Shown piece by piece: positions 11,032 to 46,230 of a stretch of 64,000 nucleotides of DNA (the first letter of the stretch is position 1; each line of letters opens with the position of its first letter). This stretch comes from an uncultured Rikenellaceae bacterium (GTDB taxonomy: Bacteria > Bacteroidota > Bacteroidia > Bacteroidales > VadinHA17). The stretch is taken from assembly GCA_964596715.1 (NCBI GenBank), contig CAZQVL010000001.1, positions 37,212 to 101,211 of the forward strand. The letters are read 5' to 3'. The position numbers and the translations under genes were made by a program. The notes beneath the pieces were generated by a model. That model worked only from the letters and a program-made list of their open reading frames with translations, did not search any database and had not been told where the DNA came from.

Positions 11032-14016
11032 ATGCGCCCTTTCAGATCATTCCTGTTAATACTGATCTTACTGGCCTGTCTGATCGGTCTGAATTATTTC
11101 ATACCGGATAATATTAAATTACCACAGGTCAATGAATTCGTACCGTGGGATCTCATAAAAGGAACATTTACAAGGATTTCCATTGATACCTCTGCCTATT
11201 TCATTCAGGCTCCTGATACATTATCACAGAAATCTGACTATAACCTCAGCACAAAAGATACCGTTCCATCAAGGGAAGAAAAAAAGCCTTCCGGCACCTT
11301 AAAGGATTATTTAGATACTTTAAACTACAGGGACGGACAGATCAGGATAATGTATTACGGTGATTCACAAATTGAAGGCGACCGCATAACCTCTTATCTG
11401 CGGCAATCATTAAGAGAAGATTACGGAGGCAGCGGCCCGGGTCTGTTCCTTCCTGTTATACCAGTTATGTACACCAAATCGGTGTATATCAGATCATCAT
11501 CAAACTGGGAGAGATATAATTACCTGTCATTCCGTGCAGGGGAGATCAGTCACAGGAACCTGGGGCCTTTTATGACCATCTGCAGGTATATGCCGGAAGG
11601 AGAGATATCTTCTGCTCCGGTCAAAGCTTCCGTCAGAATCGTCCCTTCAACTTTTGCAGACTATACAACATCCCTCTTTGACAAACTCAGGATCTTTTAT
11701 GGTAATTCACGGGATATTGTCAAAGTAACGGTCAGAGCAGATGATTACCCGGTATTGTCAGACACTCTGATAAGAGGAAACGGTTTATTTGAGCTTACAT
11801 GTTCACTCTACAAGGCAACAAACATCACAATAGAATTTGAAGGGAGAGTAAGTCCCGACATTTATGGTATAAGCATAGAGGGTGATACGGGACTGGTTGT
11901 TGACAATCTTCCTCAAAGAGGAAGTGCCGGATTAGAGTTTACCATGGTGGAGAAAGATAAACTTAAAAAGTTTTACGATCGGATCTCTCCTGATTTATTC
12001 ATCCTGCATTATGGTCTGAATTTAGTAAAAAGCGTCAGGAAAGAATACTCCTATTATGAAAAAGGTTTATACCGTCAGATCGCCCTTCTGCGGGAAATAT
12101 CGCCAGGTACACCCGTTGTAGTCGTAGGCCTGACAGATATGGCTTTCCATGATGGTGACAGTATCAGGTCATATCCCAACATTCCCTCAATTATTGAAGC
12201 GCAGAAGAAAGCAGCACTGGCGGCTGGAGCCATCTTCTGGGATTCATTCAGAGCAATGGGAGGAGACTCTTCTATAATTAAGTGGGTTGAAAGAGATCCG
12301 CCCCTTGCCCAGAAAGATTATACCCATTTTACCTACCCCGGAGCAGATACAATTGCAAAATATCTTGTTTCAGGATTATTTCGCGGCAGTTATGCAGATT
12401 CATTATTAAAGACTGATTCAGTAGTAACGGTAGAAACTGACCTGTCTGCGGCAATCCATATTCAGGAACAGTCAGAAACGGCTGAAGAATCCGCATTGAT
12501 CGCAAACCTGGTTTCACGAATCTTCAGTTATGATCCAGACAAACCTTTCATTTTTTCAACTCCGGCATTCTGGATATTCTTCCTGCTGGTTCTGGTAGGA
12601 TACAGTGTCGTTTATAAAAAATTGGTTTTGAGGAATTTATATCTTTTCCTCATAAGTCTTTTCTTCTATTTTAAATCAGGAGGATTATTTCTTTTTCTGC
12701 TGATAATCGTTACCAGTATCGACTATTGTTGTGGTCTGCTCATATACCGTTCAAGTACACGTAGCCTGCGGCGGCTTTTTGTCCTCGTCAGTATAATCTC
12801 CAACATTGGACTCCTTGCTTATTTCAAATACACGGGATTCTTCGTCGACACTCTGAATAATCTTCTGGGAACTGATATCAGGGTGTACGACTACCTTGCT
12901 TCCTTTTCAAATAAACATCTTGGAACAAGCTTTAATGTCAGTCATATAATCCTTCCTGTGGGGATATCCTTTTTTACCTTTCAATCGCTGAGTTACACCA
13001 TGGATATGTACCGGAGGAAGCTGGAGCCCGTCAGAAATATTCTGGATTTTGGTTTTTATGTTTCATTTTTTCCCCAGCTCGTAGCAGGACCTATTGTAAG
13101 GGCTTCTGAGTTTATCCCGCAATTATACGCTGAGTTTCATCTTGCACGGAGGGAATTCAGCCATGCTTTATTCCTGATATCCAAAGGATTGATAAAAAAG
13201 ATCATTATTTCTGATTTTATTGCCGTCAATTTCATCGACCGGGTTTTTGAGCTGCCAACCATGTATTCGGGATTTGAGAACCTTATGGCGGTCTATGGAT
13301 ACGGACTCCAGATATATTGTGATTTTTCAGGATATACTGATATTGCTATCGGGCTCGGATTAATTCTTGGTTTCAGGTTGCCTGTCAATTTTAATTCACC
13401 TTATAAGGCCTCGGGAGTTGCTGACTTCTGGAAGAGGTGGCATATATCGCTATCGAGGTGGCTTAAGGATTATCTGTACATTTCTCTTGGAGGGAACAGG
13501 AAGGGAAGATTTCGTACCTTTATAAACCTGATGATCACCATGTTGCTGGGGGGTTTATGGCATGGAGCTGCCCTGCGGTTTATTGTATGGGGAGGTTTAC
13601 ATGGAGTTGGGCTTATATTTAACAAAATATGGAGATACTTACTGGGTGACCGCTTAATAAGGAAAAAAGCCGGGAGAGCATTAGCAGTTTTTATAACTTT
13701 TCAGTTCGTCAGTTTTTGCTGGATATTCTTCAGAGCGTCCGATATGGATACAGCGATACTGATGCTAAGGCAGATCTTTGAGAACTTCTCACCTGGTTCT
13801 TACCAGTCTTTAATTATGGTATACAGCACAGTTTTTTCTCTTATTGCTGCAGGGTATCTTATTCATTTTCTTCCTGAGAGGATCAAAGAGTCCTACCGTG
13901 GCCTGTTTATCAGAATTCCGGTTGTTGTCCAGATGGCAGTAATCCTGCTGATGGCCATTCTGATATATCAGATGAAAACAACTGATATTATGCCGTTTAT
14001 ATATTTCAGGTTTTAA
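11032..14016 (+). CDS. Fusion protein: N-terminal TM anchor, SGNH/GDSL-like domain, C-terminal MBOAT O-acyltransferase (AlgI/PatA/DltB-like)
   Basis: SGNH block I is YYGDSQIEGD and block V is DYTH (..AQKDYTHFT). The MBOAT hallmark FWKRWHISLSRWLKDYLYISLGGNR...GGLWHGA lies in the C-terminal ~490 aa together with many TM helices. Confidence 0.85.
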   Translation: MRPFRSFLLILILLACLIGLNYFIPDNIKLPQVNEFVPWDLIKGTFTRISIDTSAYFIQAPDTLSQKSDYNLSTKDTVPSREEKKPSGTLKDYLDTLNYRDGQIRIMYYGDSQIEGDRITSYLRQSLREDYGGSGPGLFLPVIPVMYTKSVYIRSSSNWERYNYLSFRAGEISHRNLGPFMTICRYMPEGEISSAPVKASVRIVPSTFADYTTSLFDKLRIFYGNSRDIVKVTVRADDYPVLSDTLIRGNGLFELTCSLYKATNITIEFEGRVSPDIYGISIEGDTGLVVDNLPQRGSAGLEFTMVEKDKLKKFYDRISPDLFILHYGLNLVKSVRKEYSYYEKGLYRQIALLREISPGTPVVVVGLTDMAFHDGDSIRSYPNIPSIIEAQKKAALAAGAIFWDSFRAMGGDSSIIKWVERDPPLAQKDYTHFTYPGADTIAKYLVSGLFRGSYADSLLKTDSVVTVETDLSAAIHIQEQSETAEESALIANLVSRIFSYDPDKPFIFSTPAFWIFFLLVLVGYSVVYKKLVLRNLYLFLISLFFYFKSGGLFLFLLIIVTSIDYCCGLLIYRSSTRSLRRLFVLVSIISNIGLLAYFKYTGFFVDTLNNLLGTDIRVYDYLASFSNKHLGTSFNVSHIILPVGISFFTFQSLSYTMDMYRRKLEPVRNILDFGFYVSFFPQLVAGPIVRASEFIPQLYAEFHLARREFSHALFLISKGLIKKIIISDFIAVNFIDRVFELPTMYSGFENLMAVYGYGLQIYCDFSGYTDIAIGLGLILGFRLPVNFNSPYKASGVADFWKRWHISLSRWLKDYLYISLGGNRKGRFRTFINLMITMLLGGLWHGAALRFIVWGGLHGVGLIFNKIWRYLLGDRLIRKKAGRALAVFITFQFVSFCWIFFRASDMDTAILMLRQIFENFSPGSYQSLIMVYSTVFSLIAAGYLIHFLPERIKESYRGLFIRIPVVVQMAVILLMAILIYQMKTTDIMPFIYFRF

Positions 14017-14048: not shown

Positions 14049-15278
14049 TTAAAGATATGTTCTGCTATTCTTAACTTCAGAAATAAAAGGTGCAATAGCT
14101 CTTTTATAGATACCCTGGACATAAGCTATTGCCATTCCGTAGTTGGTTACGGGGACACCTGCTTTGATTGCCGGCTGTAACCTGTTGTGAAGCTGCCTCC
14201 TTGTGATCATGCAGCCACCACACTGGATTACCAGGGAATAATCCGTAACCATACGGGGCAGAGTATCGAGCCCTGCAACAACATCATATTCTATCTTTTT
14301 CCCTGTAAAATTTGATATCCATCTCGGAATCTTTGTCCGGCCGATATCATCGCAGGCGACATGATGGGTGCATGATTCGAGGAGAAGAACCCTGTCGCCA
14401 TCTTTCAGATAAGATATTTTAGGAGTGCCCTTCAGGTAACTGTCAAAGTCGCCTTTAAACCGTGCCAGCATTATACTGAAGCTGGTAAGCGGGATTTCGG
14501 GAGGTATTGAAGCGTCGGCCTTTATGAATACCTGGGAATCGGTTATGGCAAGAGCAGGTTTGATTTTTGTTTTTCTGAGGAAGGCATCCACCTCTCTCTC
14601 TTTGAGTACAATAGCAACCGCATCATTATCAATGATATCTCTTATTGCCTGCACCTGTGGAAGGATGAGGCGTCCGGCAGGAGCTTCGACATCTATTGGG
14701 GTGATCAGGATAACAATATCCCCGTAAGAGATGAGATCTCCCAGAAGGGTCGGAGTTTTAAAGGAGTGTTCAGGGATGGATTTACGGATATGGTCTATCA
14801 GCCTTTCATAATTACGTTTATCAATAACGGAGAATTCAAATGGATCAGTTGCTGTAATAGCTTTTATTTTATTTATGAATTCCCCGGTTGGTTGCTGCAG
14901 ATCAGATTTGCTGTGTATTATAATGAATGGGACATCGTATTCACGGAATTTTTTTATCAGATCATCTTCATAACTGTCCCATGAATTGTGTGTTACAACA
15001 AGAAGAGCAAGATCGATTATTTCCAGTGTCCTGACTGTCCGTTCCACCCTTTTTACTCCCAGTTCTCCTGAATCGTCAATTCCGGCTGTATCAATCAGTA
15101 TTACCGGTCCAAAGCCTGTTATCTCGAATGATTTTTTTACAGGATCGGTTGTTGTTCCGGCATGATCGGAAACAATAGCGATATCCTGGCCTGCAAGGCA
15201 GTTGATAAGACTGCTTTTACCGTTGTTACGACGTCCATAAATACCAATATGTGGTTTTGATTCTCTGCCTCTGGACAT
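14049..15278 (-). CDS. hydF: [FeFe]-hydrogenase maturation GTPase HydF
   Basis: The N-terminal GTPase has GRRNNGKSSLIN and DTAG. The C-terminal cluster-binding cysteines are ESCTHH...QCGGCM. The protein is 409 aa. Confidence 0.82.
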   Translation of the reverse strand: MSRGRESKPHIGIYGRRNNGKSSLINCLAGQDIAIVSDHAGTTTDPVKKSFEITGFGPVILIDTAGIDDSGELGVKRVERTVRTLEIIDLALLVVTHNSWDSYEDDLIKKFREYDVPFIIIHSKSDLQQPTGEFINKIKAITATDPFEFSVIDKRNYERLIDHIRKSIPEHSFKTPTLLGDLISYGDIVILITPIDVEAPAGRLILPQVQAIRDIIDNDAVAIVLKEREVDAFLRKTKIKPALAITDSQVFIKADASIPPEIPLTSFSIMLARFKGDFDSYLKGTPKISYLKDGDRVLLLESCTHHVACDDIGRTKIPRWISNFTGKKIEYDVVAGLDTLPRMVTDYSLVIQCGGCMITRRQLHNRLQPAIKAGVPVTNYGMAIAYVQGIYKRAIAPFISEVKNSRTYL

Positions 15279-34202: not shown

Positions 34203-34994
34203 ACAATTTTTACGATTTAATTGCTAATTTAATATAAAATTGAGTATCTGGAATCATAAACATAGTTTTATTGATTTTCAAGCACCATGTAGATATTGTT
34301 AATGTAACAGAGGCCGGTAACCTGTCGCCAATGACATATTCAAACATCGAAAATGAAGAGTTGTAAAAACATAATTCGGGTCAGGGTCAGTTTAACTCCA
34401 TCGCTGGTTGAGACTTCTGAAGCCGGCAACGGTATAGGATATACGAGCTTCAGGAGCTGGGGTATTAGGGCAGCAGGATAATGGAATATTTTATAAAATT
34501 ATTCGAAAAATTTACTTATGACTAAAATACTCAGATATTTATTTGGTGGGTATAAATTTTTTTTATAAATTACACAATCTGAGATTTGTGCGTATTATTA
34601 TATGGTCATAAATATTAAAAAGAAAAGACACACGTATAGATCAGAAGGATAGCAATGCTTTTTTACAGTATTGCAAAGTGTTGATTGAGAAGGTTTTCAT
34701 GGATATTGTGATTTTACTAATGATATAATCTGGAAGAAATTATAAATTCTACAACTAACCTAAAAGTAAAAACCATTAATCGACTTGCCTATGAAACAAT
34801 CCAGATCACCCATTCCTAACAGAAAATTATTTCTAATTTATTAATTCTCTATGGGCAATAATGATTCCCTATGAGAGGGAATTTTATGCTTTTCCATGAA
34901 ACATCATGTAAAAAACTAACTTTAATACATAAAAAGTATGAGAAGAAAAATCCCACTAGTTGTTTCATTATCAGGAAAAAGATCAAAACTGATT

Positions 34995-37900
34995 ATGAAA
35001 CTAATAACTATGTTATTGTTATTTGGGGCAATTCAGACAATTGCTGCAGCAAGTACACTTGATGCCGGTATTGTCGCCTCAAACGATATGCAACAACAGC
35101 GGTTAGTCACAGGACAGATTACCGATGCTGCTGGTAATCCGCTGCCTGGTGTAAATATTATAGAAAAAGGCACTGTTACCGGTGCAATTTCAGGAGCAGA
35201 TGGCAACTATACCATTACTGTTGCTTCTGGAAGTTCAACTCTGAATTTTTCTTTTATAGGGTATGTCACTCAGGAAATTCTTGTCGGAAATCAAAACACT
35301 ATAGATGTGGTCCTTGTTGAAAGCGTTTCAGCATTGGATGAGATTATCGTTATCGGTTATTCAACTCAGGCAAGAAGATCTCTTACAGGTGCCGTTTCAA
35401 CGGTTAGTAGCGAAAGCTTGGCTGATAATACGGCACCCAGTGCAATTACCCGTTTACAGGGCCAGGCTGCCGGTGTGCAAATTCTCGGTTCACACACTCC
35501 GGGAGCTGGTGCAACTATCAGAGTTCGTGGTATGGGTACCATTAATGACAGTAATCCGCTTTGGGTAGTCGACGGTGTTCCCGGACAACTCGAAGTTCCC
35601 CCAAATGATATTGAATCAATTACTGTATTGAAAGATGCAGCAGCACAGGCTATTTATGGAGCAAGGGCTGCTAACGGGGTTATACTTGTCACAACAAAAT
35701 CCGGCAGAAGAAATCAGGCCGCCCAGATTAATGTAAATGTGAGAGGTGGTATAACACAGAACTCGAATTATTATGATCTGTTAAATACCGAGGAATATGG
35801 TGAAATGCTTTGGCTTGAAGCAGCAAACGCTGGAATTGTAGGTTTCGATCATGTGTTGTATGGCGATGGTGCTACACCTGACATACCTAAGTATATCAGG
35901 CCTGCAAGGGCTACAAGTGTAGATCTCAACCTGTATGATAACAAAATGGTTCACGAGGACGGAGATGATACATACCTCATTATGGAAGCCGCTGTACCAG
36001 GTACAGAATGGTTAAAAGTGATAGACCGGAATGCAAAGTATCAGGAGGTTACCGCTGATGTTTCCGGTGGTTCTGCAAATACTACCTATGCATTTCAGCT
36101 CGGCTACCTGTTAGAAGAAGGTATTTTGAAATATACCTCATTTGACCGGTATAGTTTCCGTTCCAATATTACCACTAATCCCGCTAAATGGATTGAAATT
36201 GGAGAAAAAGTTGGTATATCCTTCACTCAGGATCATGGTACCCAGGGAGACAACTCTGAAAGTACGATGATATCCCAGGCATATCGTATGCAACCAATAG
36301 TGCCGGTTTATGATGTAATGGGAAATTATGCCGGAACAAGAGCTGAAGGTACCGGAAACGGCAGGAACCCATTATTCCAGCTTGATGCCAATCAGCATGA
36401 TATTGACAAGAGAATGAACTTAAGTGGTAATATTTATTTAAAGCTTACCCTTTTGGAGGGATTATCAGCCCGTTCTCTTATTGGCGTTAGTTACTATTCA
36501 AGACATAATAAAAATTATGGGTTTGTTGAAGTTGCGTTTTCGGAAAGAGGTAAATATCCTTCTCTGAGTGAAACCGCCAATTATAACCTGAATTGGATCT
36601 GGACCAATACGATAGAGTACTCCAAACTTTTTGCCGGAGTACACGATCTTAAGGTAATTCTTGGTTGTGAAGCAATTGATAATAACAGTAATGATTTCAA
36701 TGGATCGAGATCGAACTTTTTCTCCCAGGAGATCAACTATATGCAGCTTGACACCGGTCTGGAGAGTATTAATAACGGAGGAGGCAGCAGTTCATGGAGT
36801 CTGTTCTCACTATTCGGACGTTTTAATTACAGTTATTCAGACAAATATATGATTGAAGCAGTTGTCCGTCGTGATGGTTCATCCCGTTTTGGTGAAGGTA
36901 ACCAATATGGTATTTTCCCCGCAGTTTCGGTTGGATGGAGAATATCAAACGAGAATTTCATGGCAACCACTTCCGACTGGCTGGATGAATTGAAGATGCG
37001 TGTCGGTTATGGTGAAACCGGAAATGACCGTATGGGTAATTATAACAGTTACACCAATTTTGATATCAATTACTATGACTCATTTTATCCTATCGATGGT
37101 GCCAATGCCACAACCGGTGCAACCGGGTTCTATAAATCCTCATTGGGTAATCCGAATGTAAAATGGGAGACCACAAAAACCACCAATATTGGTCTTGATG
37201 CAACCTTATTCTCGAGCCTGAATGTAAGTTTTGACGTATGGCAGAGGGTAACAACAGATATGCTTTATCCAAAGGAGATACCAATGGTATTGGGTCGGGT
37301 CTCTGCACCTTCAATTAATATCGGTGAGATGAAGAACAAGGGATTTGATCTTGAATTGGGATACACAAACAGTGCATTAAATGGCGATCTCAGGTATAGC
37401 ATTGATATGGAATTATCTCACTATAAAAATGAAATTGTAAAACTTACTGATAAAGAGACTGAGTTTATGCAAGGCGGTGGTTATCGTGAGATGATATATA
37501 CAAGAACTGAGACAGGACACGCTTTCCCTGAGTTCTTCGGATATTATGTTGATGGTATTTTTATGACCCAGCCGGAAGTTGACGCACATGCTCCGGCATT
37601 TGGACCTTTAGGGGATTATAACGAGCCTGGACGCTGGATTTACAGAGATACCAATATTGACGGTGTAGTTGATGCTGATGACCGTGATTATATAGGATCT
37701 CCCCACCCTGATTTTACAGCTGGTATGAATATCAATGTTGCCTACAAAGATCTCTCCGTGACAGCCTTCCTGTATTCCAGCTATGGCAACGAAATATGCA
37801 ACTATGTGAGCAGGTGGATTGATTTTGTCAATTTCCAGGGAGGACGTAGTCATAACAGGCTGTATAAATCATGGGGTAGCCCCTATCTTAGTGACAACGC

Positions 37901-38204
37901 CGATGCTGTACAGCCAAAGGCCGAAAACGACGATGTCGACAGCCAGTACCCTTCTACCGCATTTATAGAGGATGGTTCTTACCTTCGCCTGAAAACTTTG
38001 AGGTTGAGTTACAATTTCAACAGGCTTTTGGGAAACAGGTTCAGAAACCTGCAGGTTTTCGGACAAGTATCCAATCTGTTCACTATAACCAAATATTCGG
38101 GATTAGACCCTGAAATTGGTGGTGGTGGAATCAATATGGGTATAGATGCAGGAGCATGGCCAACACCAAGGCAATTCTTGTTTGGTATTACCCTTGGCAT
38201 TTAG
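34995..38204 (+). CDS. SusC/RagA-family TonB-dependent outer-membrane transporter
   Basis: It has a signal peptide, a carboxypeptidase-regulatory-like domain (VTGQITDAAGNPLPGVNIIEKGT), a plug (IVIGYSTQ) and a C-terminal beta-barrel ending ..FGITLGI. The preferred start is ATG 34995. Confidence 0.93.
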   Translation: MKLITMLLLFGAIQTIAAASTLDAGIVASNDMQQQRLVTGQITDAAGNPLPGVNIIEKGTVTGAISGADGNYTITVASGSSTLNFSFIGYVTQEILVGNQNTIDVVLVESVSALDEIIVIGYSTQARRSLTGAVSTVSSESLADNTAPSAITRLQGQAAGVQILGSHTPGAGATIRVRGMGTINDSNPLWVVDGVPGQLEVPPNDIESITVLKDAAAQAIYGARAANGVILVTTKSGRRNQAAQINVNVRGGITQNSNYYDLLNTEEYGEMLWLEAANAGIVGFDHVLYGDGATPDIPKYIRPARATSVDLNLYDNKMVHEDGDDTYLIMEAAVPGTEWLKVIDRNAKYQEVTADVSGGSANTTYAFQLGYLLEEGILKYTSFDRYSFRSNITTNPAKWIEIGEKVGISFTQDHGTQGDNSESTMISQAYRMQPIVPVYDVMGNYAGTRAEGTGNGRNPLFQLDANQHDIDKRMNLSGNIYLKLTLLEGLSARSLIGVSYYSRHNKNYGFVEVAFSERGKYPSLSETANYNLNWIWTNTIEYSKLFAGVHDLKVILGCEAIDNNSNDFNGSRSNFFSQEINYMQLDTGLESINNGGGSSSWSLFSLFGRFNYSYSDKYMIEAVVRRDGSSRFGEGNQYGIFPAVSVGWRISNENFMATTSDWLDELKMRVGYGETGNDRMGNYNSYTNFDINYYDSFYPIDGANATTGATGFYKSSLGNPNVKWETTKTTNIGLDATLFSSLNVSFDVWQRVTTDMLYPKEIPMVLGRVSAPSINIGEMKNKGFDLELGYTNSALNGDLRYSIDMELSHYKNEIVKLTDKETEFMQGGGYREMIYTRTETGHAFPEFFGYYVDGIFMTQPEVDAHAPAFGPLGDYNEPGRWIYRDTNIDGVVDADDRDYIGSPHPDFTAGMNINVAYKDLSVTAFLYSSYGNEICNYVSRWIDFVNFQGGRSHNRLYKSWGSPYLSDNADAVQPKAENDDVDSQYPSTAFIEDGSYLRLKTLRLSYNFNRLLGNRFRNLQVFGQVSNLFTITKYSGLDPEIGGGGINMGIDAGAWPTPRQFLFGITLGI

Positions 38205-38242
38205 CCGGTACATTTATTTATAAATATTTAAAAAATATAGAT

Positions 38243-40000
38243 ATGAAGCGAATATTCATTATAATGTTTATTACTGCGTTAACCGTAAGTATGCTAACAA
38301 TGAATTCCTGTAACGAAGATTTCCTTGTAAAAGAGCCACCTGGAGCTGCGGCCGAGGCTGTGATGCAAACCTCTGAAGGTGTTGAAGCTCTCTTGATTGG
38401 TTGTTACAGTAATTTGCAAGGACGCTCCAGATTTGGAGATTGCCTGGGAACGGACTGGACTTATGGAAGCGGTGCGTCTGATGATACCTACAAAGGTACA
38501 TCAACAGGTGACCAGACTGCTTTTAATTTGGTTGAGAGGTATGAAGCTCTGCCGAGCAACCCATATATGCGTGACAGATGGCGGGGCTGTTTTGACGGTG
38601 CTGCCCGTTGTAATACCAGTCTGGAATTATTAAAGGCAACACAGCAAGGGGCAAAACCTCTTACCGCTGCCCGGGCAACAGAAGTTGAGGCAGAGCTAAA
38701 GTTTTTAAGAGCCTGGTTCCACTTCAAAGCTACTTTGGTTTTTGAAAAAATTCCATACATCAAAACTCAAACTGAATTAGGAGACGTATTACCTGAAGAA
38801 GTTCCTAATGACTCCGAGGGTTGGGATGATATTGAGGCTGACCTGCAGTTTGCCATCGATAATTTACCTACAACTCATCCGTTAGGCGAAGTTGGTCGTG
38901 CAACTAAATATTCTGCTATGGCCGTAAAAGCGTATGTCCATATGAATCAGGGTGAATTTAGCCTGGCTAAACCCCTGCTGGATGCTATAATAAGCAGCGG
39001 TGAGTTTAGTCTTGTCAGTAATTATTTTGATAATTACGATATGACGCATGAGAATAATTCAGAATCCATTTTTGAATTACAATGTGCCACCAGTGGAAGT
39101 AATAACTCTTCTATGTTAGTGGCAGGTCCTTCTATGCACCAGTCTGGTCCGGCAGGTCTTGGCTGGGGATTCCATCAACCTTCTCAAAACCTTTTCGAGG
39201 CTTTCCAGGTTGACGTTAATGGTTTACCAGTTTTGGACGTAGCTGCTCGCGATCCCATTGTTAATGACATGGGTGTGGGCAGTGGTGAGAATTTCGTACC
39301 AACCAATCACCTGATTGATCCCCGTTGTGACTGGACCATTTCCCGTCGTGGAGTTGATTTCCTGGGCTGGGGTATTTGCGAAGGTGCGTCATGGATTCGT
39401 GAACAGTCAAATGGCGGCCCTTACATGACCAAGAAATTCATGCAAAAATCTTCTGAACAAAGTTTGAATTTTGCTGGAAGAGGTTTTGATAATGGTAAAA
39501 ACTACAGGGCTTATACTTTAGGACATGTATTATTATGGAGAGCTGAAATACATGTAGAAGATAATGAACTTGATGAAGCACGACTGCTTGTAAATCAGAT
39601 CCGTGACCGTGCCAAAAGCAGCGATGTGGTTATGGGACTTTGTACGTCTTACACATTCGGAGCTGGTGACCCTGTTGTAGACTGGAACCAGCCTGCTGCC
39701 AATTATCTGGTAGAACCTTATCCGGCCGGGCACGCTGCTTTCGCTACTCAGGAAGAAGCGAGAAAAGCAGTAAGGCTTGAAACAAGGCTGGAATATGCAA
39801 CCCAGGGTTTCCGATACTTCGATCTGAGACGCTGGGGCATTGCTGATCAGGTGCTGAACGACTATATTGCAGAAGACTCTCAATTCAGGATATTCTTGCA
39901 AGGAGCATTGTATGATCCTGTCCAGGATGATTATTGGCCATTGCCACAAGATCAGCTTGATATTCAGAAAGGTATACTACAACAGGATCCTTCATATTAA
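38243..40000 (+). CDS. SusD/RagB-family nutrient-binding outer-membrane lipoprotein
   Basis: It has a lipoprotein signal (MLTMNSC) and the conserved C-terminal block ER..E...QG.RYFDLRRWG. It lies directly after SusC. The preferred start is ATG 38243. Confidence 0.9.
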   Translation: MKRIFIIMFITALTVSMLTMNSCNEDFLVKEPPGAAAEAVMQTSEGVEALLIGCYSNLQGRSRFGDCLGTDWTYGSGASDDTYKGTSTGDQTAFNLVERYEALPSNPYMRDRWRGCFDGAARCNTSLELLKATQQGAKPLTAARATEVEAELKFLRAWFHFKATLVFEKIPYIKTQTELGDVLPEEVPNDSEGWDDIEADLQFAIDNLPTTHPLGEVGRATKYSAMAVKAYVHMNQGEFSLAKPLLDAIISSGEFSLVSNYFDNYDMTHENNSESIFELQCATSGSNNSSMLVAGPSMHQSGPAGLGWGFHQPSQNLFEAFQVDVNGLPVLDVAARDPIVNDMGVGSGENFVPTNHLIDPRCDWTISRRGVDFLGWGICEGASWIREQSNGGPYMTKKFMQKSSEQSLNFAGRGFDNGKNYRAYTLGHVLLWRAEIHVEDNELDEARLLVNQIRDRAKSSDVVMGLCTSYTFGAGDPVVDWNQPAANYLVEPYPAGHAAFATQEEARKAVRLETRLEYATQGFRYFDLRRWGIADQVLNDYIAEDSQFRIFLQGALYDPVQDDYWPLPQDQLDIQKGILQQDPSY

Positions 40001-40028
40001 TTAATAATGAAGTCCGTATTATTAAAGA

Positions 40029-40058
40029 AAGAGGCTGCATTTGTGGCCTCTTTTTTTT
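40029..40058 (+). terminator. Rho-independent terminator after the susD-like gene
   Basis: AAGAGGC (40029-40035) pairs with GCCTCTT (40046-40052), followed by a T-run to 40058. Confidence 0.6.
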
Positions 40059-40096
40059 GACTGTTCAATACGGCTATTGAATTAAAAAATTAATTT

Positions 40097-41248
40097 ATGA
40101 AATTATTATCTGCAATTACTTTTGGACTTTGCATGCTTCTGCTTGTTAAATGCAATAGTGGTCATTTAAATCATGCATCGGATTTTTTAATCCCCGTCAC
40201 TAAGAACTCAGAGTTAAATCCCGTTTTGAATCCCAGGGCAACCAGTGAATTTTATTGCCCTGTGCGTCAACAACTTGTCAGGTGGGAGGAAAAAGATGTC
40301 TTTAATCCGGCCAGTGTAGTAAAAGGTGATACTCTCTTTTTACTTTACCGTGCTGAAGATACTCTTGGAAAGTATAATGGCACCTCAAGGATAGGGCTGG
40401 CTTATAGCCTTGACGGATATCATTTTAACAGGAAGGATAAACCGGTTCTTTTCCCCTCTGAAGATGAGTACCTCAAGTATGAATGGGAAGGGGGATGTGA
40501 AGATCCGCGCATAGTGGGAGATAAAAATGGGACCTATTATATGACATACACTGCTTATGATGGAGACAAAGCACGTTTATTTATAGCCACATCTGAAGAT
40601 TTAAGGCATTGGACCAAATATGGATCAGTATTCCGGAAAGCCGGTGAAGAGTATATAAATATGTGGTCTAAATCGGGATCAATTATTTGTAATGAACATA
40701 ACGGAAAACTTATTGCAACAAAAATCAATGGAGAATACTGGATGTACTGGGGAGAATCAAACATTTATATGGCTACCTCAAAAAATCTGATCGATTGGAC
40801 TCCTTTGTTGGAAATGGATCCGGCCAAACAGCAACTGGATACAATGAGAAAATACACGAGATCATTCAGGATATTGTTCTCAACAAGGAACGGGATGTTT
40901 GATAGTGAGTTAGTAGAACCAGGTCCCCCGGCAATAATAAGAAAACAGGGAATTCTTTTTATTTACAACAGCAAAAACAGTCCTTCAAAAGGCGATAAGA
41001 ATCTGGCACCCGGAACATATGCTGCCGGGCAAATAATAACTGATAAGGATGATCCAACGAAAGTACTGAAAAGAATGGATAAATGGTTTATCACTCCCGA
41101 TCAGCCGTTTGAGATAACAGGTCAGGTAAATAATGTATGTTTTGTTGAGGGATTGGCATTTTTTAATAATAAATGGTTGTTTTATTATGGCACGGCTGAT
41201 TCTAAAATAGCGGTTGCAGAATCAGATATAAAGAAATCAACCGAGTAA
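40097..41248 (+). CDS. GH130-family glycoside hydrolase/phosphorylase with lipoprotein-type signal peptide
   Basis: The five-bladed-propeller GH130 blocks are present (FNPASVVKGDTLFLLYRAED, EGGCEDPRIV, YYMTYTAYDG, GPP). The N-terminal signal is MLLLVKC. Confidence 0.85.
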   Translation: MKLLSAITFGLCMLLLVKCNSGHLNHASDFLIPVTKNSELNPVLNPRATSEFYCPVRQQLVRWEEKDVFNPASVVKGDTLFLLYRAEDTLGKYNGTSRIGLAYSLDGYHFNRKDKPVLFPSEDEYLKYEWEGGCEDPRIVGDKNGTYYMTYTAYDGDKARLFIATSEDLRHWTKYGSVFRKAGEEYINMWSKSGSIICNEHNGKLIATKINGEYWMYWGESNIYMATSKNLIDWTPLLEMDPAKQQLDTMRKYTRSFRILFSTRNGMFDSELVEPGPPAIIRKQGILFIYNSKNSPSKGDKNLAPGTYAAGQIITDKDDPTKVLKRMDKWFITPDQPFEITGQVNNVCFVEGLAFFNNKWLFYYGTADSKIAVAESDIKKSTE

Positions 41249-41284: not shown

Positions 41285-43063
41285 CTAATTGAAATGAAGA
41301 TAGAACCAGAAAGTGTCACCAAATTCTTTCTGCATTTGTTCTTTGCTTAAAGCCTGGATTTGTCGCAATCCGATATATCTTTCAACATACTGTTCAAAAC
41401 GTAACCGGGTTTCGTTGCTTATTGTAAGTCCACCAAGATCAGGAAGAGCTCCCTTACTGTCGAAATAAGTTAAAGCTGCTTCTTCAATATGACGTGGAAT
41501 TCGCTTATAACCCATGGTTCTCATTTTTTTGATATTATTTACTATTGCCTCAACATTTTTTGTCAGCAAGTGCCAGGCCATTTCATATTCAAATGCTTTT
41601 CTATTATCCGGATTGGTCTGCAATAGCATTGTAAGATTGTTCTGCGGCGATTCCAGCTGGATAAAGAAATTGTTCCCGGGAAGAATCTTAATCATTTCAC
41701 CCAGCTCAGGATGAGCTTTAATACGCTCAGGATCATCAAGCAGCTTTTCATATTCTGCTGCCCAGGTATTATACCAGATGGTCCTTTTCAATATGTTAAT
41801 GTATTTCTCTGCCATCCGGTAATTTCCATTCATAAGGTCGGTTTGAACAAGTAATTTGACATTTTGCGGACGGTAACCATAAACCACCATTTCTTCATAA
41901 GCCCAGCGGTGGGCCTCGTTTATCAGCCCAACAGAATAGAAGAAATAAGCCCCCCACCCGAGGTGTTCGTTGCTCCACGGCAAAATAAGTGAACCAGCGC
42001 CGAAATCCTGCCTTCCTTTGAACAACCTGTCGCATAATTGTTCAGTTTCAGAGAGCGCAATATTATAAAAGTACTGACCGATCCTGTTCCGGGAAGGAAA
42101 ACCTTCATGAAACTCAATCGCTTCATTCCATTTCTTTTCAAAAATAAATTTTTCAAGCTTAATTACCCTGGCAGTCTCGGGATTATAATTTTTAACCATG
42201 AGCAGTATGGTCACAACCAAAACAATTCCGGAGAGGATAATTGTGAAAAACCTGGTATTTATCCATTTGTTTTTTACTGAAACAGCAATTTTTCCGGCAG
42301 CAAGATATAATATCACAATCGGGACAAATAAGCGAAATATGAACTTATGTGTTGGATCATTTATGAAGGGAAGCGGGTACAAGATGAGCTGCCCGACAGA
42401 TTGCAGGAAAAGAATTTCCTTGAAGATGATGAACGAACCGGCAGCTACGCTCAGCAGAATAGCAGGATACAGATACTTTTGTTTCCCTTTAATATAAAAT
42501 AAGCTATACATAACATACATGCCCAGAAAAATCCATGCATAAGCGCCGGTCAGGAAATAGAATAAAGGAAACAGAATTAACATAGTATAGCGATAGCTTC
42601 TTCTTTCGGAATTTATGGTCAGCAGGAAATATAAAAAAACCAGTAGAAATCCGAGATTGTACTCCATCATATGATAATAGTAAGCCTGCATCAATAAAAG
42701 CAGGCAGATGGTTATCAGCAGCAAAATAAATGAAGCTGGTTTACCGGTCATCAACCGCTTGTTGATATTCAGTAGTATAAGTCCCGGTAAGGTCAGAATA
42801 ATAGCGAGGATCAATGACCCCAGTATTTTGCTGGCATAGAACTGTGCAAGAAATTTACCTGCAAGTTCAAGCAAGCCACCAGGCTTTGTTAAGAATTCAT
42901 AAAAGTAATCCCCGGAAAAAATAAACAGAGATTGCTGTTCCTGAAAAAAAAGCAAATAGTCGCCAATCCAGTAAAAATATACGAATACCGCAATGCAGAA
43001 GAATGCAAGTAAATAATGCACATAAGCATCCCCTTTTATTTTTACCTTAGGAAACATCTTCAC
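41285..43063 (-). CDS. Large polytopic membrane protein of unknown function (DUF6057-like): ~9-10 N-terminal TM helices plus a ~290-aa helical C-terminal domain
   Basis: The first ~300 aa are hydrophobic and the C-terminal half is soluble. A GTG start at 43063 overlaps the upstream gene's TGA (GTGA). An alternative ATG lies at 43057. The family name is from memory and was not verified. Confidence 0.7.
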   Translation of the reverse strand: MKMFPKVKIKGDAYVHYLLAFFCIAVFVYFYWIGDYLLFFQEQQSLFIFSGDYFYEFLTKPGGLLELAGKFLAQFYASKILGSLILAIILTLPGLILLNINKRLMTGKPASFILLLITICLLLLMQAYYYHMMEYNLGFLLVFLYFLLTINSERRSYRYTMLILFPLFYFLTGAYAWIFLGMYVMYSLFYIKGKQKYLYPAILLSVAAGSFIIFKEILFLQSVGQLILYPLPFINDPTHKFIFRLFVPIVILYLAAGKIAVSVKNKWINTRFFTIILSGIVLVVTILLMVKNYNPETARVIKLEKFIFEKKWNEAIEFHEGFPSRNRIGQYFYNIALSETEQLCDRLFKGRQDFGAGSLILPWSNEHLGWGAYFFYSVGLINEAHRWAYEEMVVYGYRPQNVKLLVQTDLMNGNYRMAEKYINILKRTIWYNTWAAEYEKLLDDPERIKAHPELGEMIKILPGNNFFIQLESPQNNLTMLLQTNPDNRKAFEYEMAWHLLTKNVEAIVNNIKKMRTMGYKRIPRHIEEAALTYFDSKGALPDLGGLTISNETRLRFEQYVERYIGLRQIQALSKEQMQKEFGDTFWFYLHFN

Positions 43064-44637
43064 TGATGGCTTGCTCTTATACTTTGTGTGCTGTCAACAA
43101 TTGTCTTACTACCAATCCATTCCGGCAGGGAATCCAGAGGATTTGCGGGATTTGCCTGAACCGGTTCCTGCTTTGCTGCATCTTCAAAATCCCGGGGTAC
43201 AAGCCTGATTTTTCCACTTACAAATTCAGGAATATTAAAGGATTCCAGCATCCGGTTGTAAAGTGTCGGATCTTTCTGTGGCAGAACAAAAGGTTTCCTA
43301 TTCTGATCCAAAGAATCAATATACGCAAAATAAGGCCTTGTGCTTCGACCGTCTGATCTTTTACTGCTAAAGACCAGCCATTTACTATTGGTCGACCATG
43401 TGTGGTAACTTTCAGTCTCATCACTGTTCAGGGTCATTTCCCTGATCTCTCCATTTTGAAGGTTAAGTAAATATAAGTCTGCTTCCCGGTGCCAGATCGG
43501 GAAAGTGCCGTAATCATGAAGAGTGAAAATCAAATATTTACCATCAGGAGAAATTCTTGGAAAAGAGACACTTTTGTTTCTTTCATCAGCATTGAAAATA
43601 ATTTCGGTTTTACCGAATGTGCCCGTCGCGGGATCAAATGATTTTCTTGCAAGATTATAATGGGTTGATTCAATATCTTTTAGATCCGGATTGGTGCTTT
43701 TATACCTGTATTCTGCCCTGCAGAAGTATAAATATTTACCATCAGACGACCATGAAGGAAAGGTTTGCAAATAAATCAGAGAGTCCTGGTCCAGTATGTT
43801 TATTATTTCATTCTTTTCCCTGTCATACAGAATCAGAGTGGAAATAAGGTCATAAACCTCAATACTTTTTTTTGCTTCAGCATAAAAGCTCTGTCTTACC
43901 TGATTGGATGAAAATGCCACATATCTTCCATCGGGATGCCATGACGGATAGGTAGCACCGCCAGGCATGGTTTCTATTTTTAGATTTGTCCTGGTTATTT
44001 TCTTATCTTCAACGAAATAGGTTCCGCCTTTCGATCCACGGATGTGAACCAGGAATCTTGCCGGATTATTCTGGTTGAAGGAGTGACAGTTGATACAATT
44101 ATATTCTAGTATCTGATTTTCGATCAGGGATTCTTCCTCGAAACTTTCAATAGACCTCTGTACTATCTTGATCCTGGACCAGCTATAATAACCCGGATGA
44201 ATTACCCGGTAGGTCAGGTAGGGATCAATTGGCTCATTGGATACATACATGAAGAAAGGCTCATATTCTATCATGTTTTTTTTATCCTCACCTGCAGAGT
44301 AAACCTTAACCGTGATTTTGTCACCTTCACAATCCCTGATCAGTTTTTTCCATGATTTTTCAGGAAATCTTATAACTCCATCTGACGATTTTAAATCAAT
44401 CCGGTACTTATTTGTACTACCGGTTGCAGTTACTTTAAAAAAATATCCATCCTCCTTAATAACAAAATTCATCGGGGCAATATTGGGAGGGATGGTTACA
44501 TCAGAATAATCCGGTTCGATATATGGCTTATAATCTATCTTCTGTATTTTTTCGTTGATTTCTGTTTTACAGCTAATTAGAAAAAGAATCCCAGAAAATA
44601 AAATAAACAGCTTATAAAGAATTTTTTTTGATTTCAT
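43060..44637 (-). CDS. TolB-like (PD40 repeat) beta-propeller lipoprotein with a single CXXCH motif
   Basis: It has a lipoprotein signal (FLISC) and CINCH at residues 181-185 (nt 44083-44097). Four PD40-like repeats are visible (PSWHPDGRYVAFSS, PSWSSDGKYLYF, ISPDGKYLIF, WSTNSKWLVFSSKRSDG). Confidence 0.75.
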   Translation of the reverse strand: MKSKKILYKLFILFSGILFLISCKTEINEKIQKIDYKPYIEPDYSDVTIPPNIAPMNFVIKEDGYFFKVTATGSTNKYRIDLKSSDGVIRFPEKSWKKLIRDCEGDKITVKVYSAGEDKKNMIEYEPFFMYVSNEPIDPYLTYRVIHPGYYSWSRIKIVQRSIESFEEESLIENQILEYNCINCHSFNQNNPARFLVHIRGSKGGTYFVEDKKITRTNLKIETMPGGATYPSWHPDGRYVAFSSNQVRQSFYAEAKKSIEVYDLISTLILYDREKNEIINILDQDSLIYLQTFPSWSSDGKYLYFCRAEYRYKSTNPDLKDIESTHYNLARKSFDPATGTFGKTEIIFNADERNKSVSFPRISPDGKYLIFTLHDYGTFPIWHREADLYLLNLQNGEIREMTLNSDETESYHTWSTNSKWLVFSSKRSDGRSTRPYFAYIDSLDQNRKPFVLPQKDPTLYNRMLESFNIPEFVSGKIRLVPRDFEDAAKQEPVQANPANPLDSLPEWIGSKTIVDSTQSIRASHQ

Positions 44638-44780
44638 CCGGTATTATTAATAGCTAAAATTGCTATGCTTAGCGCAAAATTGTTCATAGTATTAAAAGGC
44701 CGCATAATTTGCAATAAAGTCAGATTTTGTTTTAATATTAAAGAGCACCTTTAAAAACTACTTTTTCGCAATGTCATTAA

Positions 44781-44899
44781 TCCGCCTTCGCGTAAAGCTT
44801 CGGCGGACGCGAAGGAAAGGTATAATTGGCTTCGCCGAGCTCGTAAACTCGGTTCCTCGGTGCTTGCACCGTTTTTAGAGTCCAGAGCTTGCTCTGGGG
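44781..44899. repeat. GC-rich hairpin-rich island in the 660-bp gap between the LuxR-type gene and the PD40 operon
   Basis: Three stems are read directly: CCTTCGCG/CGCGAAGG (44785-44792 with 44808-44815), CCGAG/CTCGG (44835-44839 with 44848-44852), and CCAGAGC-TT-GCTCTGG (44882-44897). The island contains AAGCTTCGGCGGAC, related to the AGCTTCAGCG words at 4109-4139. Confidence 0.45.
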
Positions 44900-45297
44900 T
44901 TAATACCGTTTATTTAAAACAAATATATTTATTAGTTTTCTGTAAACCTAATTGTCCCTTCTTCACTCCAGTTAATTTTATTATAATCATTTATACGATA
45001 ATTACATATACATATATTATTATGTCTTTCATATCCGGACATAACTAGTCCATAGCAACAACTGTTTTTAAATGAATAAATCGGCAAATATTGTAAATTA
45101 ATTCATCGGCCTGTACAACCATTCGGCTATTTCTTATTGTTTGTTTTCTGCATATATTCAATTGTATTATGTCGTTTGCAGGACTTAAGGCATGGGAAAC
45201 TTCATTATATTGTGAATCCCGAAAAGAAATTCGAATATCTTTCCTGCCTAAATCATTTTTTAAGAGTTGCAGAGTATCCTCGTCACCCGGACAGGAA

Positions 45298-46230
45298 TCA
45301 TAGTCTTTTCATTTCCTTTACAATATTTATCAGTTGTACCCTGCTTTTAACATTGGTCTTTATATAGATTCTGTGAGTGTGGTCCTTTACTGTTTGAAGG
45401 CTGATAAATAGTTTACCGGATATTTCTTTATTGCTCAGCCCGTTGCAAATTTCGCGGATGATATCTGTTTCCCGGGCCGAGATTTCGAATTTCTTGCAAA
45501 ATTCTTCGAACGATAAATCCCTGGCACCCTCTTCACTAAAGACTGTTAAAAGAGTACCATAAGTAAGATAGACCGGCAGAAATGTATTTCCAGCAAAAAA
45601 TGTGAAAACGAATATTAGTCCAAGGTAAACCTGTGATTTATAGAACAGGAGAGGGGTGATTTGTGCCAGCATAGCAAATATTATTGCCAGGGAGATAACT
45701 TTCCCATCGTAATCATGAATAACTGATTTTTTTCTGACCGGGAATAATAGCAAACCTGCAGCAATGACAGAATAGAGGCAATTCATGAAGATAAAGTAAT
45801 ATCTGATAAGAGTAGCCGGATTTATTTCACTGGTTCTTGCTATCAGAAAGCCTGCAACGAAAATCACAGCAAAATTGATCAGGAGAAACCAGAATATCAA
45901 CCAGTTGTTTTTTCTTCTTCCTGAGATAGTCCCCGAAAACTGAACAAGCATGAGCCATGCAAATATCAGGAAAGGTAATCCCAGAAGGATTGAGATGTTA
46001 GTGATTCTCATAAGAAGGTCGCCGGAAATATAAGGTGAGAGAAATGACCTGATTACTACCTGTCCCCAGATACCGTAAAAGCCGAAAGTAAAAATAAAGA
46101 CCTGGAAATAAAGAAGGGTAGAGAAGATCTCCGACCTGTATTTATTCCGTAACCGGGATGCAAGTACTATTCCTCCCGCAGCCATGGCAACCGACAGAAT
46201 AAAGATCAGATATACCAGGTATTGTAACAT
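45298..46230 (-). CDS. Membrane-integral (about 7 TM) LuxR/NarL-family HTH transcriptional regulator
   Basis: The C-terminal ~60 aa form a LuxR-type HTH (ISARETDIIREICNGLSNKEISGKLFISLQTVKDHTHRIYIKTNV). The N-terminal ~240 aa are hydrophobic helices. There is no receiver domain. Confidence 0.8.
   Translation of the reverse strand: MLQYLVYLIFILSVAMAAGGIVLASRLRNKYRSEIFSTLLYFQVFIFTFGFYGIWGQVVIRSFLSPYISGDLLMRITNISILLGLPFLIFAWLMLVQFSGTISGRRKNNWLIFWFLLINFAVIFVAGFLIARTSEINPATLIRYYFIFMNCLYSVIAAGLLLFPVRKKSVIHDYDGKVISLAIIFAMLAQITPLLFYKSQVYLGLIFVFTFFAGNTFLPVYLTYGTLLTVFSEEGARDLSFEEFCKKFEISARETDIIREICNGLSNKEISGKLFISLQTVKDHTHRIYIKTNVKSRVQLINIVKEMKRL

Follow-up and report, generated by a model that had tools for sequence, protein, structure and literature searches.

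The stretch of DNA analysed here, 64,000 nucleotides of a contig (CAZQVL010000001.1) from an uncultured Rikenellaceae bacterium and referred to below as the window, carries on its minus strand two adjacent genes for envelope proteins. The first encodes a 525-residue lipoprotein that we call PROP (43060..44637, ATG start in the open reading frame (ORF) list), in which a beta-sandwich is followed by a predicted c-type heme attachment motif, CxNCH (CINCH in the window's protein), and a PD40 propeller. The second encodes a polytopic protein, predicted to reside in the inner membrane (41285..43063, GTG start in the same list), that belongs to the Pfam family PF19529 (DUF6057). A sequence-only reading of this DNA had described two minus-strand genes sharing a 4-nt GTGA overlap at 43060-43063, and the sequence agrees. 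The junction (43057..43063) reads ...CAT CAG TGA AG ATG TTT..., and DUF6057 can start either within the GTGA start/stop overlap, giving 592 residues, or at an ATG located 2 nt past the TGA. Public gene calls (P0121 and L001, with identical protein) use this ATG at 43057, giving 590 residues and a 2-nt spacer. Either start choice implies tight coupling of the PROP and DUF6057 genes. A protein identical to the window's PROP (P0001) was present on 18 contigs.

PROP begins with MKSKKILYKLFILFSGILFLISC, a Sec-type lipoprotein signal whose signal peptide and lipobox (...FLISC) span residues 1-23 (44569..44637, minus strand). The lipobox cysteine, C23, did not vary in 34 close homologs, and among diverse homologs its conservation was at least 90%. 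An AlphaFold2 (AF2) model of PROP, with a predicted local distance difference test (pLDDT) score of 75.6, showed a confident N-terminal beta-sandwich at residues ~30-135 (44233..44550, minus strand; pLDDT 85-96), a low-confidence segment at residues 142-183, and a TolB-like beta-propeller of at least five blades at residues ~182-440 (43318..44094, minus strand). Pfam recognised four copies of PF07676 (PD40) with E 7e-20 and 70.9 bits compared to a cutoff of 20.9, which together with the ORF translation bears out the earlier description of a lipoprotein carrying FLISC, a CINCH motif at 44083-44097 and four PD40 repeats. The top Foldseek matches of the model were propellers of TolB and S9 peptidases, both at probability 1.0 (TolB at E ~1e-10), and the hydrazine synthase beta subunit 5c2v_B was also among the matches (E 1.5e-7). 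Homologs of PROP carry the database names 'PD40 domain-containing protein', 'TolB family protein' and 'hypothetical protein'. PDB sequence searches with profiles of PROP and DUF6057 and with the PROP N-terminal region returned weak TolB repeats and noise only, and the best of the PADLOC defence models for PROP was PDC-M58B at E 0.006.

The CINCH motif at residues 181-185 (C181, C184 and H185; 44083..44097, minus strand), which the sequence-only reading had singled out as a c-type heme attachment site and proposed to follow across homologs, turned out to be conserved at every distance sampled. C-x-N-C-H was found in all 120 of the closest PROP homologs (55-100% identity). When PROP residues 24-215 were searched against 1.84 billion cluster representatives, 1041 clusters were retrieved at E <= 1e-3, and CxNCH was present in 110 of the 112 distant homologs among the listed members long enough to span the site. 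Across 85 full-length sequences with 26-42% identity, R144, C181, C184, H185 and R200 were each 100% conserved and N183 was 96% conserved. For comparison, the chance expectation of a CXXCH is ~5e-4 per 525-residue protein, and the sole other CXXCH among the window ORFs belongs to a DnaJ zinc finger. The conservation of PROP peaks at the membrane-proximal motif PDY..IPxNIAPxNF, the most conserved motif of the beta-sandwich, and at the heme segment, not in the propeller. In the same 85 sequences P42 and P50 were 100% conserved and D43, Y44, N52, I53, A54, P55, F58 and W96 were conserved in at least 94%. Based on this pattern of conservation, PROP probably carries a covalently bound heme c. Candidate distal ligands were 86-92% conserved in these sequences (H198 in 73, H234 in 78 and H412 in 75 of the 85), position 195 was Met in 50, and no sixth ligand was universally conserved among the 85, so it is possible that the heme site is accessible and either catalytic or ligand-binding. 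The low AF2 confidence at residues 142-183 around the motif is expected of a cofactor-dependent fold.

The product of the second gene matches PF19529 over its full length (profile positions 9-569 of 569; E 2.8e-135, 452.9 versus 29.8 bits), and there was no match to it in NCBIfam, PADLOC or PDB sequences. AF2, hydropathy and the distribution of K/R residues point to a membrane domain of nine transmembrane (TM) helices with a cytoplasmic N-terminus (42188..43057, minus strand), followed by a C-terminal alpha-helical, solenoid or TPR-like domain of ~300 residues (41288..42187, minus strand) that is placed in the periplasm by the topology and by a gene fusion described below. This is close to the 592 residues, about 9-10 TM helices and ~290-residue helical domain of the sequence-only reading. 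The K/R-rich loops alternate as expected for an N-in, C-out protein, and the C-terminal part of the AF2 model (pLDDT 70.6) is all-helical. Foldseek found no PDB match to DUF6057 at E <= 1e-3, returning weak TPR, PPR and solenoid similarities only. Deep conservation was assessed in 67 diverse sequences with a median identity of ~22%. Conserved residues in the first periplasmic loop and at the start of TM2 and TM3 are F45, P59-G60-G61, Q72, G80 and P116 (F45, P59-G60-G61 and Q72 being those of loop 1), and those in the periplasmic domain are W310, N332, A334, L335, F346, Q350, G377, E388, P521, E526, T582 and Y586. No charged or His residue within the TM helices was conserved in this set.

Comparison across genomes showed that the two genes are a co-inherited, translationally coupled and co-diverging pair. 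In a close set of 80 species-representative genome loci, comprising Bacteroidales metagenome-assembled genomes (MAGs) together with Tangfeifania diversioriginum and Mariniphaga anaerophila, DUF6057 follows PROP immediately, in the same orientation, in 77. Of the other three loci, L012 and L075 are located at a contig end, and L060 offers 6 kb of downstream sequence but has a split, incomplete PROP match. A diverse set of 80 metagenome loci of greater divergence contained 79 assessable PROP genes, of which 77 stand next to a DUF6057 gene on the same strand, 69 in the order DUF6057-PROP versus 8 in the order PROP-DUF6057, and the modal intergenic spacing across these 77 homologous pairs is -4 nt. 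The coupled gene pair that the sequence-only reading described in the window is thus syntenic in both sets. The distance matrices of PROP and DUF6057 correlated with r = 0.86 over 49 pairs, a value that none of 999 Mantel permutations reached.

Two or three pairs often stand in tandem, as in L159, L151, L163, L165, L170 and L081. Tandem paralogs share 48% identity between PROP copies and 31% between DUF6057 copies, and by this measure they are old. A Phycisphaerae MAG (GCA_012729015.1; L091, 8005-18797) contains three consecutive, mutually divergent DUF6057-PROP pairs flanked by housekeeping genes only (tRNA synthetases, PPK2, MutY), with a chorismatase-like/RidA gene directly downstream, and each PROP of the array carries a lipobox together with C[IVM]NCH at the corresponding position. 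Relatives were found in at least 502 GTDB species, and the N-terminal and heme region retrieved over 1000 clusters defined at 50% identity. The module is carried by Bacteroidales from sediments, digesters, the rumen and the human gut (Parabacteroides), and by Phycisphaerae. Separately, a 791-residue ORF with a PROP hidden Markov model (HMM) match, encoded on the opposite strand and without its own DUF6057 (L109:3337-5712, minus strand), may represent a different architecture of the PROP family.

In one locus the two proteins are joined in a single polypeptide. The 1068-residue ORF L086:5158-8364 aligns with DUF6057 residues 23-589 and then, in frame, with PROP residues 38-485, with a non-hydrophobic linker of 45 residues in place of the signal peptide and lipobox, and with CMNCH retained. 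The free-standing PROPs are exported, so the fusion puts the C-terminal domain of DUF6057 on the periplasmic side of the membrane, as the predicted topology does. The fusion also argues for a physical complex between the two proteins, and it was treated as supporting rather than decisive because it occurs on a single metagenomic contig. Overall, we consider it likely that PROP and DUF6057 form a stable two-subunit complex. As a side observation, the fusion is followed by a separate DUF6057 and PROP pair, and the gene caller had shortened the fusion to 787 residues.

The most frequent neighbours of the pair are genes for SusC/SusD importers. In the window, a SusC-like TonB-dependent transporter (1088 residues, 34938-38204), a SusD-like lipoprotein (585 residues, 38243-40000) and, between SusD and DUF6057, a GH130 enzyme (40097-41248) form a plus-strand group (34938-41248) that is convergent with DUF6057 and PROP. 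The GH130 enzyme scored 420.7 bits with the NCBIfam model for BT3780-type beta-1,2-mannosidases, below the 550-bit cutoff. Of the 80 close loci, 53 contained a SusD-like gene, frequently in convergent orientation to the pair, and the same convergent arrangement of SusC/SusD was seen in human-gut Parabacteroides. In roughly 8-12 of the 80 diverse loci SusC and SusD are directly upstream on the same strand (SusC-SusD-DUF6057-PROP), and SusD accounted for 7 of 68 immediate neighbours. Since the loci are not phylogenetically independent, this enrichment is suggestive only.

A search for a universal third partner by neighbour clustering and Pfam counts gave minority associations only, which rules such a partner out. 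Fifteen of ~160 loci, in both phyla, encode a cytoplasmic protein of ~370-400 residues, a distant relative of FkbO/Hyg5 chorismatases and RidA whose scores fall far short of the family cutoffs (for example L020:4100-5221, L011:8910-9998, L034:7316-8404, L066:5664-6794 and L093:9532-10728). Large GDSL/SGNH-hydrolase and TPR proteins stand beside the pair on some Bacteroidota-like contigs (L085:1793-4045, L089:9626-11539, L090:2242-4155), and CBM9 proteins with a sorting tail of the type IX secretion system are neighbours in a few loci. Because no neighbour is universal and the Phycisphaerae arrays are reported without the minority neighbours, the core of the module consists of the two genes alone. 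In many Bacteroidales relatives we also observed proteins of ~1100 residues with FG-GAP/VCBS and ASPIC/UnbV domains near the pair (L023:1851-5144 and equivalent positions), in clusters that further contain a Fib_succ_major lipoprotein, a 175-residue lipoprotein with no Pfam match, BNR_4 and Amidohydro_2.

Upstream of PROP on the same strand, the sequence-only reading had noted a seven-TM LuxR-type regulator. The gene exists (45298-46230, minus strand) and encodes a 310-residue GerE/LuxR protein with six to seven N-terminal hydrophobic segments and a C-terminal helix-turn-helix, as judged from Pfam and hydropathy. Its membership in the system did not hold up: besides the window it stands beside the pair in just one other species locus (L008), which rules it out as a module component, and its product is probably a membrane-embedded one-component regulator unrelated to the module. 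Between this gene and PROP, the element ATTAGGTTTACAGAAAACTAATAAATATATTTG (44911-44952, minus strand) shares ~90% identity with the region that directly precedes the PROP start codon in L037, L045 and L008. This element contains TATATTTG, includes a Bacteroidetes-type TAnnTTTG box and is probably the module's promoter. The same 660-nt gap holds, between this element and the start of PROP, a string of four to five short GC-rich hairpins (44770-44905, minus strand) with a minimum free energy of -44.9 kcal/mol (z -3.6 relative to shuffled sequences). The hairpin string had no Rfam match, there being none in the whole window, and no second copy in the window, and it looks like an insertion in the 5' leader because the promoter-like element adjoins the start codon in the related loci. 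Elsewhere, the window encodes both subunits (I and II) of a cytochrome bd oxidase, along with HydF, the maturase of [FeFe]-hydrogenase (10-2708, 14049-15278), a combination that suggests an oxygen-tolerant fermentative anaerobe. It also encodes a 994-residue protein (11032-14016, plus strand) with an MBOAT acyltransferase domain at residues 669-872 only and a large unannotated N-terminal part.

Our overall picture, which we favor tentatively and with somewhat less than even confidence, is that of a redox-active two-subunit hemoprotein at the inner membrane and periplasm with PROP as the chemically active subunit. PROP would be exported by Sec and lipidated at C23, and the cell's cytochrome c maturation system would attach one c-type heme covalently at C181-x-N-C184-H185. 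DUF6057 would cross the inner membrane nine times from a cytoplasmic N-terminus, leaving loop 1 and the ~300-residue solenoid facing the periplasm, and PROP would dock on its cognate DUF6057 in a 1:1 ratio. The heme centre would sit on the outer face of the inner membrane, a location proposed because the best-conserved parts of both proteins are membrane-near, namely the post-anchor motif together with R144, CxNCH and R200 of PROP, and loop 1 and the solenoid of DUF6057. Almost no polar residues are conserved inside the DUF6057 helices, so we read this subunit as an anchor and as a scaffold that would bind a substrate or partner. The most likely activity would be redox: the complex would transfer electrons, or it would oxidise or reduce a substrate in the periplasm or close to the membrane. 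SusC/SusD adjacency, tandem paralogous pairs and anaerobic glycan-degrading hosts tentatively suggest that the module processes imported nutrients instead of filling one housekeeping role.

Several known periplasmic enzymes, including NirS (cytochrome cd1), quinohemoprotein alcohol dehydrogenases and hydrazine synthase, have both a c-type heme site and a beta-propeller. PROP resembles them in having a predicted c-type heme site and a propeller in the periplasm, but it has no sequence or HMM relation to their cytochrome or catalytic domains and gives no indication of a second cofactor such as d1 heme or pyrroloquinoline quinone. Further differences are that PROP lacks a cytochrome c domain, its single minimal heme motif lying in a linker, and that it needs a polytopic partner. 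A more far-reaching form of the redox interpretation, which we regard as doubtful, is that the module represents an unrecognised class of membrane-tethered periplasmic hemoprotein machine. Such a machine would use an open-site heme c for redox chemistry on substrates that are delivered by SusC/SusD or are membrane lipid- or quinone-like, with paralogs specialised for different substrates in anaerobes of the gut, rumen and sediment.

A number of observations weigh against the redox interpretation. PROP had no match to cytochrome families at E <= 1 in Pfam or NCBIfam, and phmmer against the PDB gave cytochrome c7 only, at E 0.97. The surroundings of the pair contain no conserved redox partner, quinone site or other cytochrome, and the DUF6057 membrane helices offer no conserved His or charged residue for electron transfer or quinone binding. 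No ORF with the WWD motif of cytochrome c maturation was found in the window and 1.9 Mb of flanking sequence, a scope short of whole genomes that makes this result uninformative. SusC and SusD are missing from many loci, including all Phycisphaerae loci, and their adjacency to the pair is inflated by shared ancestry in Bacteroidales. The only fusion found comes from a single contig, and the AF2 models are of medium quality, with pLDDT values of 76 for PROP and 71 for DUF6057.

The most probable alternative, though one that we consider unlikely, is a non-redox scaffold or binding machine of the envelope, in which propeller and solenoid bind protein, peptide or glycan in the manner of Tol, Tricorn or TPR proteins. 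The CxNCH would then be structural, holding heme, metal or a disulfide that joins the beta-sandwich to the propeller, and the complex would capture, hold or pass on periplasmic cargo, for example cargo from SusC transporters. This explanation is consistent with the PD40 propellers of closest fold (TolB, S9 peptidases), which bind peptides or proteins, and with the Tricorn_N matches that exist among precomputed annotations. The conservation of DUF6057, with few polar invariants, is likewise scaffold-like, and the neighbourhood lacks a conserved redox partner while showing SusC/SusD adjacency. Among known systems, PROP can be compared with TolB of the Tol-Pal system, likewise a periplasmic PD40 propeller that follows an N-terminal domain, whose structures are the best Foldseek matches of PROP. 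PROP differs from TolB in being lipidated, in its other N-terminal beta-sandwich and in CxNCH, and it scored far under the TolB equivalog cutoffs (43.7 versus 343 bits for TIGR02800 and 27.5 versus 405 bits for PRK01029). Its obligate partner is DUF6057, with no tolQRA, pal or cpoB nearby: Tol genes were absent from ~160 related loci, and the window neighbours are DUF6057, LuxR, GH130 and SusC/SusD. Two observations stand against a scaffold. Absolute conservation of both cysteines, the histidine and two arginines in a C-x-N-C-H context of multiheme type is typical of a functional heme site, and conservation is lower on the propeller surface than in the heme and N-terminal region, which would be surprising if the propeller were the working part.

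The sequence-only reading had compared the second protein to GT-C glycosyltransferases (the C-type membrane fold) and O-antigen ligases. In this improbable scenario DUF6057 would be a divergent GT-C-type enzyme using lipid-linked sugars, or a ligase/polymerase-like enzyme, with its helical domain and PROP choosing the acceptor. The layout does recall GT-C proteins of the ArnT/PMT/TMTC-like and STT3/PglB types: DUF6057 is an N-in polytopic protein with a long, conserved first periplasmic loop that has two short helices and a conserved K/Y-P-G-G, and with a large outward C-terminal domain of helical repeats. Moreover, E40 is invariant within the close family, and STT3B was the highest-probability Foldseek match (probability 0.54). 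However, the STT3B match is not significant (E 0.75, TM-score 0.25), and none of 39 DUF6057 members gave a signal for GT-C, Wzy or PMT families in Pfam at E <= 10, nor did NCBIfam or a PDB profile search for GT-C. E40 is retained in only 35 of the 67 diverse homologs and no other loop-1 acid is conserved, which rules out E40 as a catalytic acid and leaves DUF6057 without an invariant one. Conserved glycan-biosynthesis neighbours (flippase or priming transferase genes) were likewise not found near the pair, and a glycosyltransferase would leave the heme unexplained. The GT-C idea is thus without support, given the conservation of E40 together with the missing HMM signal and the lack of a significant fold match.

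Least probable of all, and in our view very improbable, is that DUF6057 is dedicated to the maturation or insertion of PROP (as a specialised heme lyase or chaperone resembling NrfEFG/CcmFHI) rather than being its working partner: strict 1:1 pairing with cognate paralogs, the combination of a polytopic part with a TPR-like periplasmic domain and the legacy name 'cytochrome C biosynthesis protein', carried by P0059 alone among homologs, would fit such a role, but DUF6057 has neither a Trp-rich WWD motif nor a conserved His in its conserved-residue lists, the canonical CXXCH of PROP should suit the general maturation system, and the permanent in-frame fusion favors a stable complex over a transient maturase. 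NrfG and CcmI use TPR domains. Like MsrQ-MsrP and NrfEFG/CcmFHI, the module consists of a polytopic membrane protein and, encoded next to it, a periplasmic cofactor protein, the cofactor being predicted in the case of PROP; unlike them, DUF6057 lacks conserved heme-ligating His residues and WWD and shares no sequence similarity.

Both families were catalogued previously, one as a domain of unknown function and the other as generic PD40 proteins, and in agreement with the sequence-only reading neither protein fell into a characterised family in Pfam, NCBIfam, PADLOC, PDB or the literature, where DUF6057 and generic PD40 were the only assignments. No mention of DUF6057 or PF19529 was found in the papers searched, and nothing relevant was found on proteins combining PD40 and heme. 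The literature and databases that were searched contain no description of the obligate pairing, of the conservation of the heme site, of the fusion or of the spread across phyla. There is no known system of this composition, and we rate the module as categorically new as a system, which could still fall into a known enzyme class given a good structure or phenotype.

These results define a widespread, phylogenetically broad and experimentally tractable envelope module. The strict pairing and the fusion provide experimental handles, as do PROP residues C181, C184, H185, R144 and R200 and the PGG loop and E526 of DUF6057, and cultured hosts are available in Tangfeifania diversioriginum, Mariniphaga anaerophila and Parabacteroides. 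Even if the module turns out to be a divergent representative of a known class of enzymes, its assignment would provide annotation for thousands of hypothetical proteins. If the proposed arrangement is true, a covalent heme lipoprotein bound to a nine-TM partner would be a new component of the Bacteroidota cell envelope, often encoded beside the SusC/SusD importers that determine the feeding mode of these bacteria. If the module does carry out redox chemistry on imported substrates, it would add a new biochemical step to nutrient processing in Bacteroidota.

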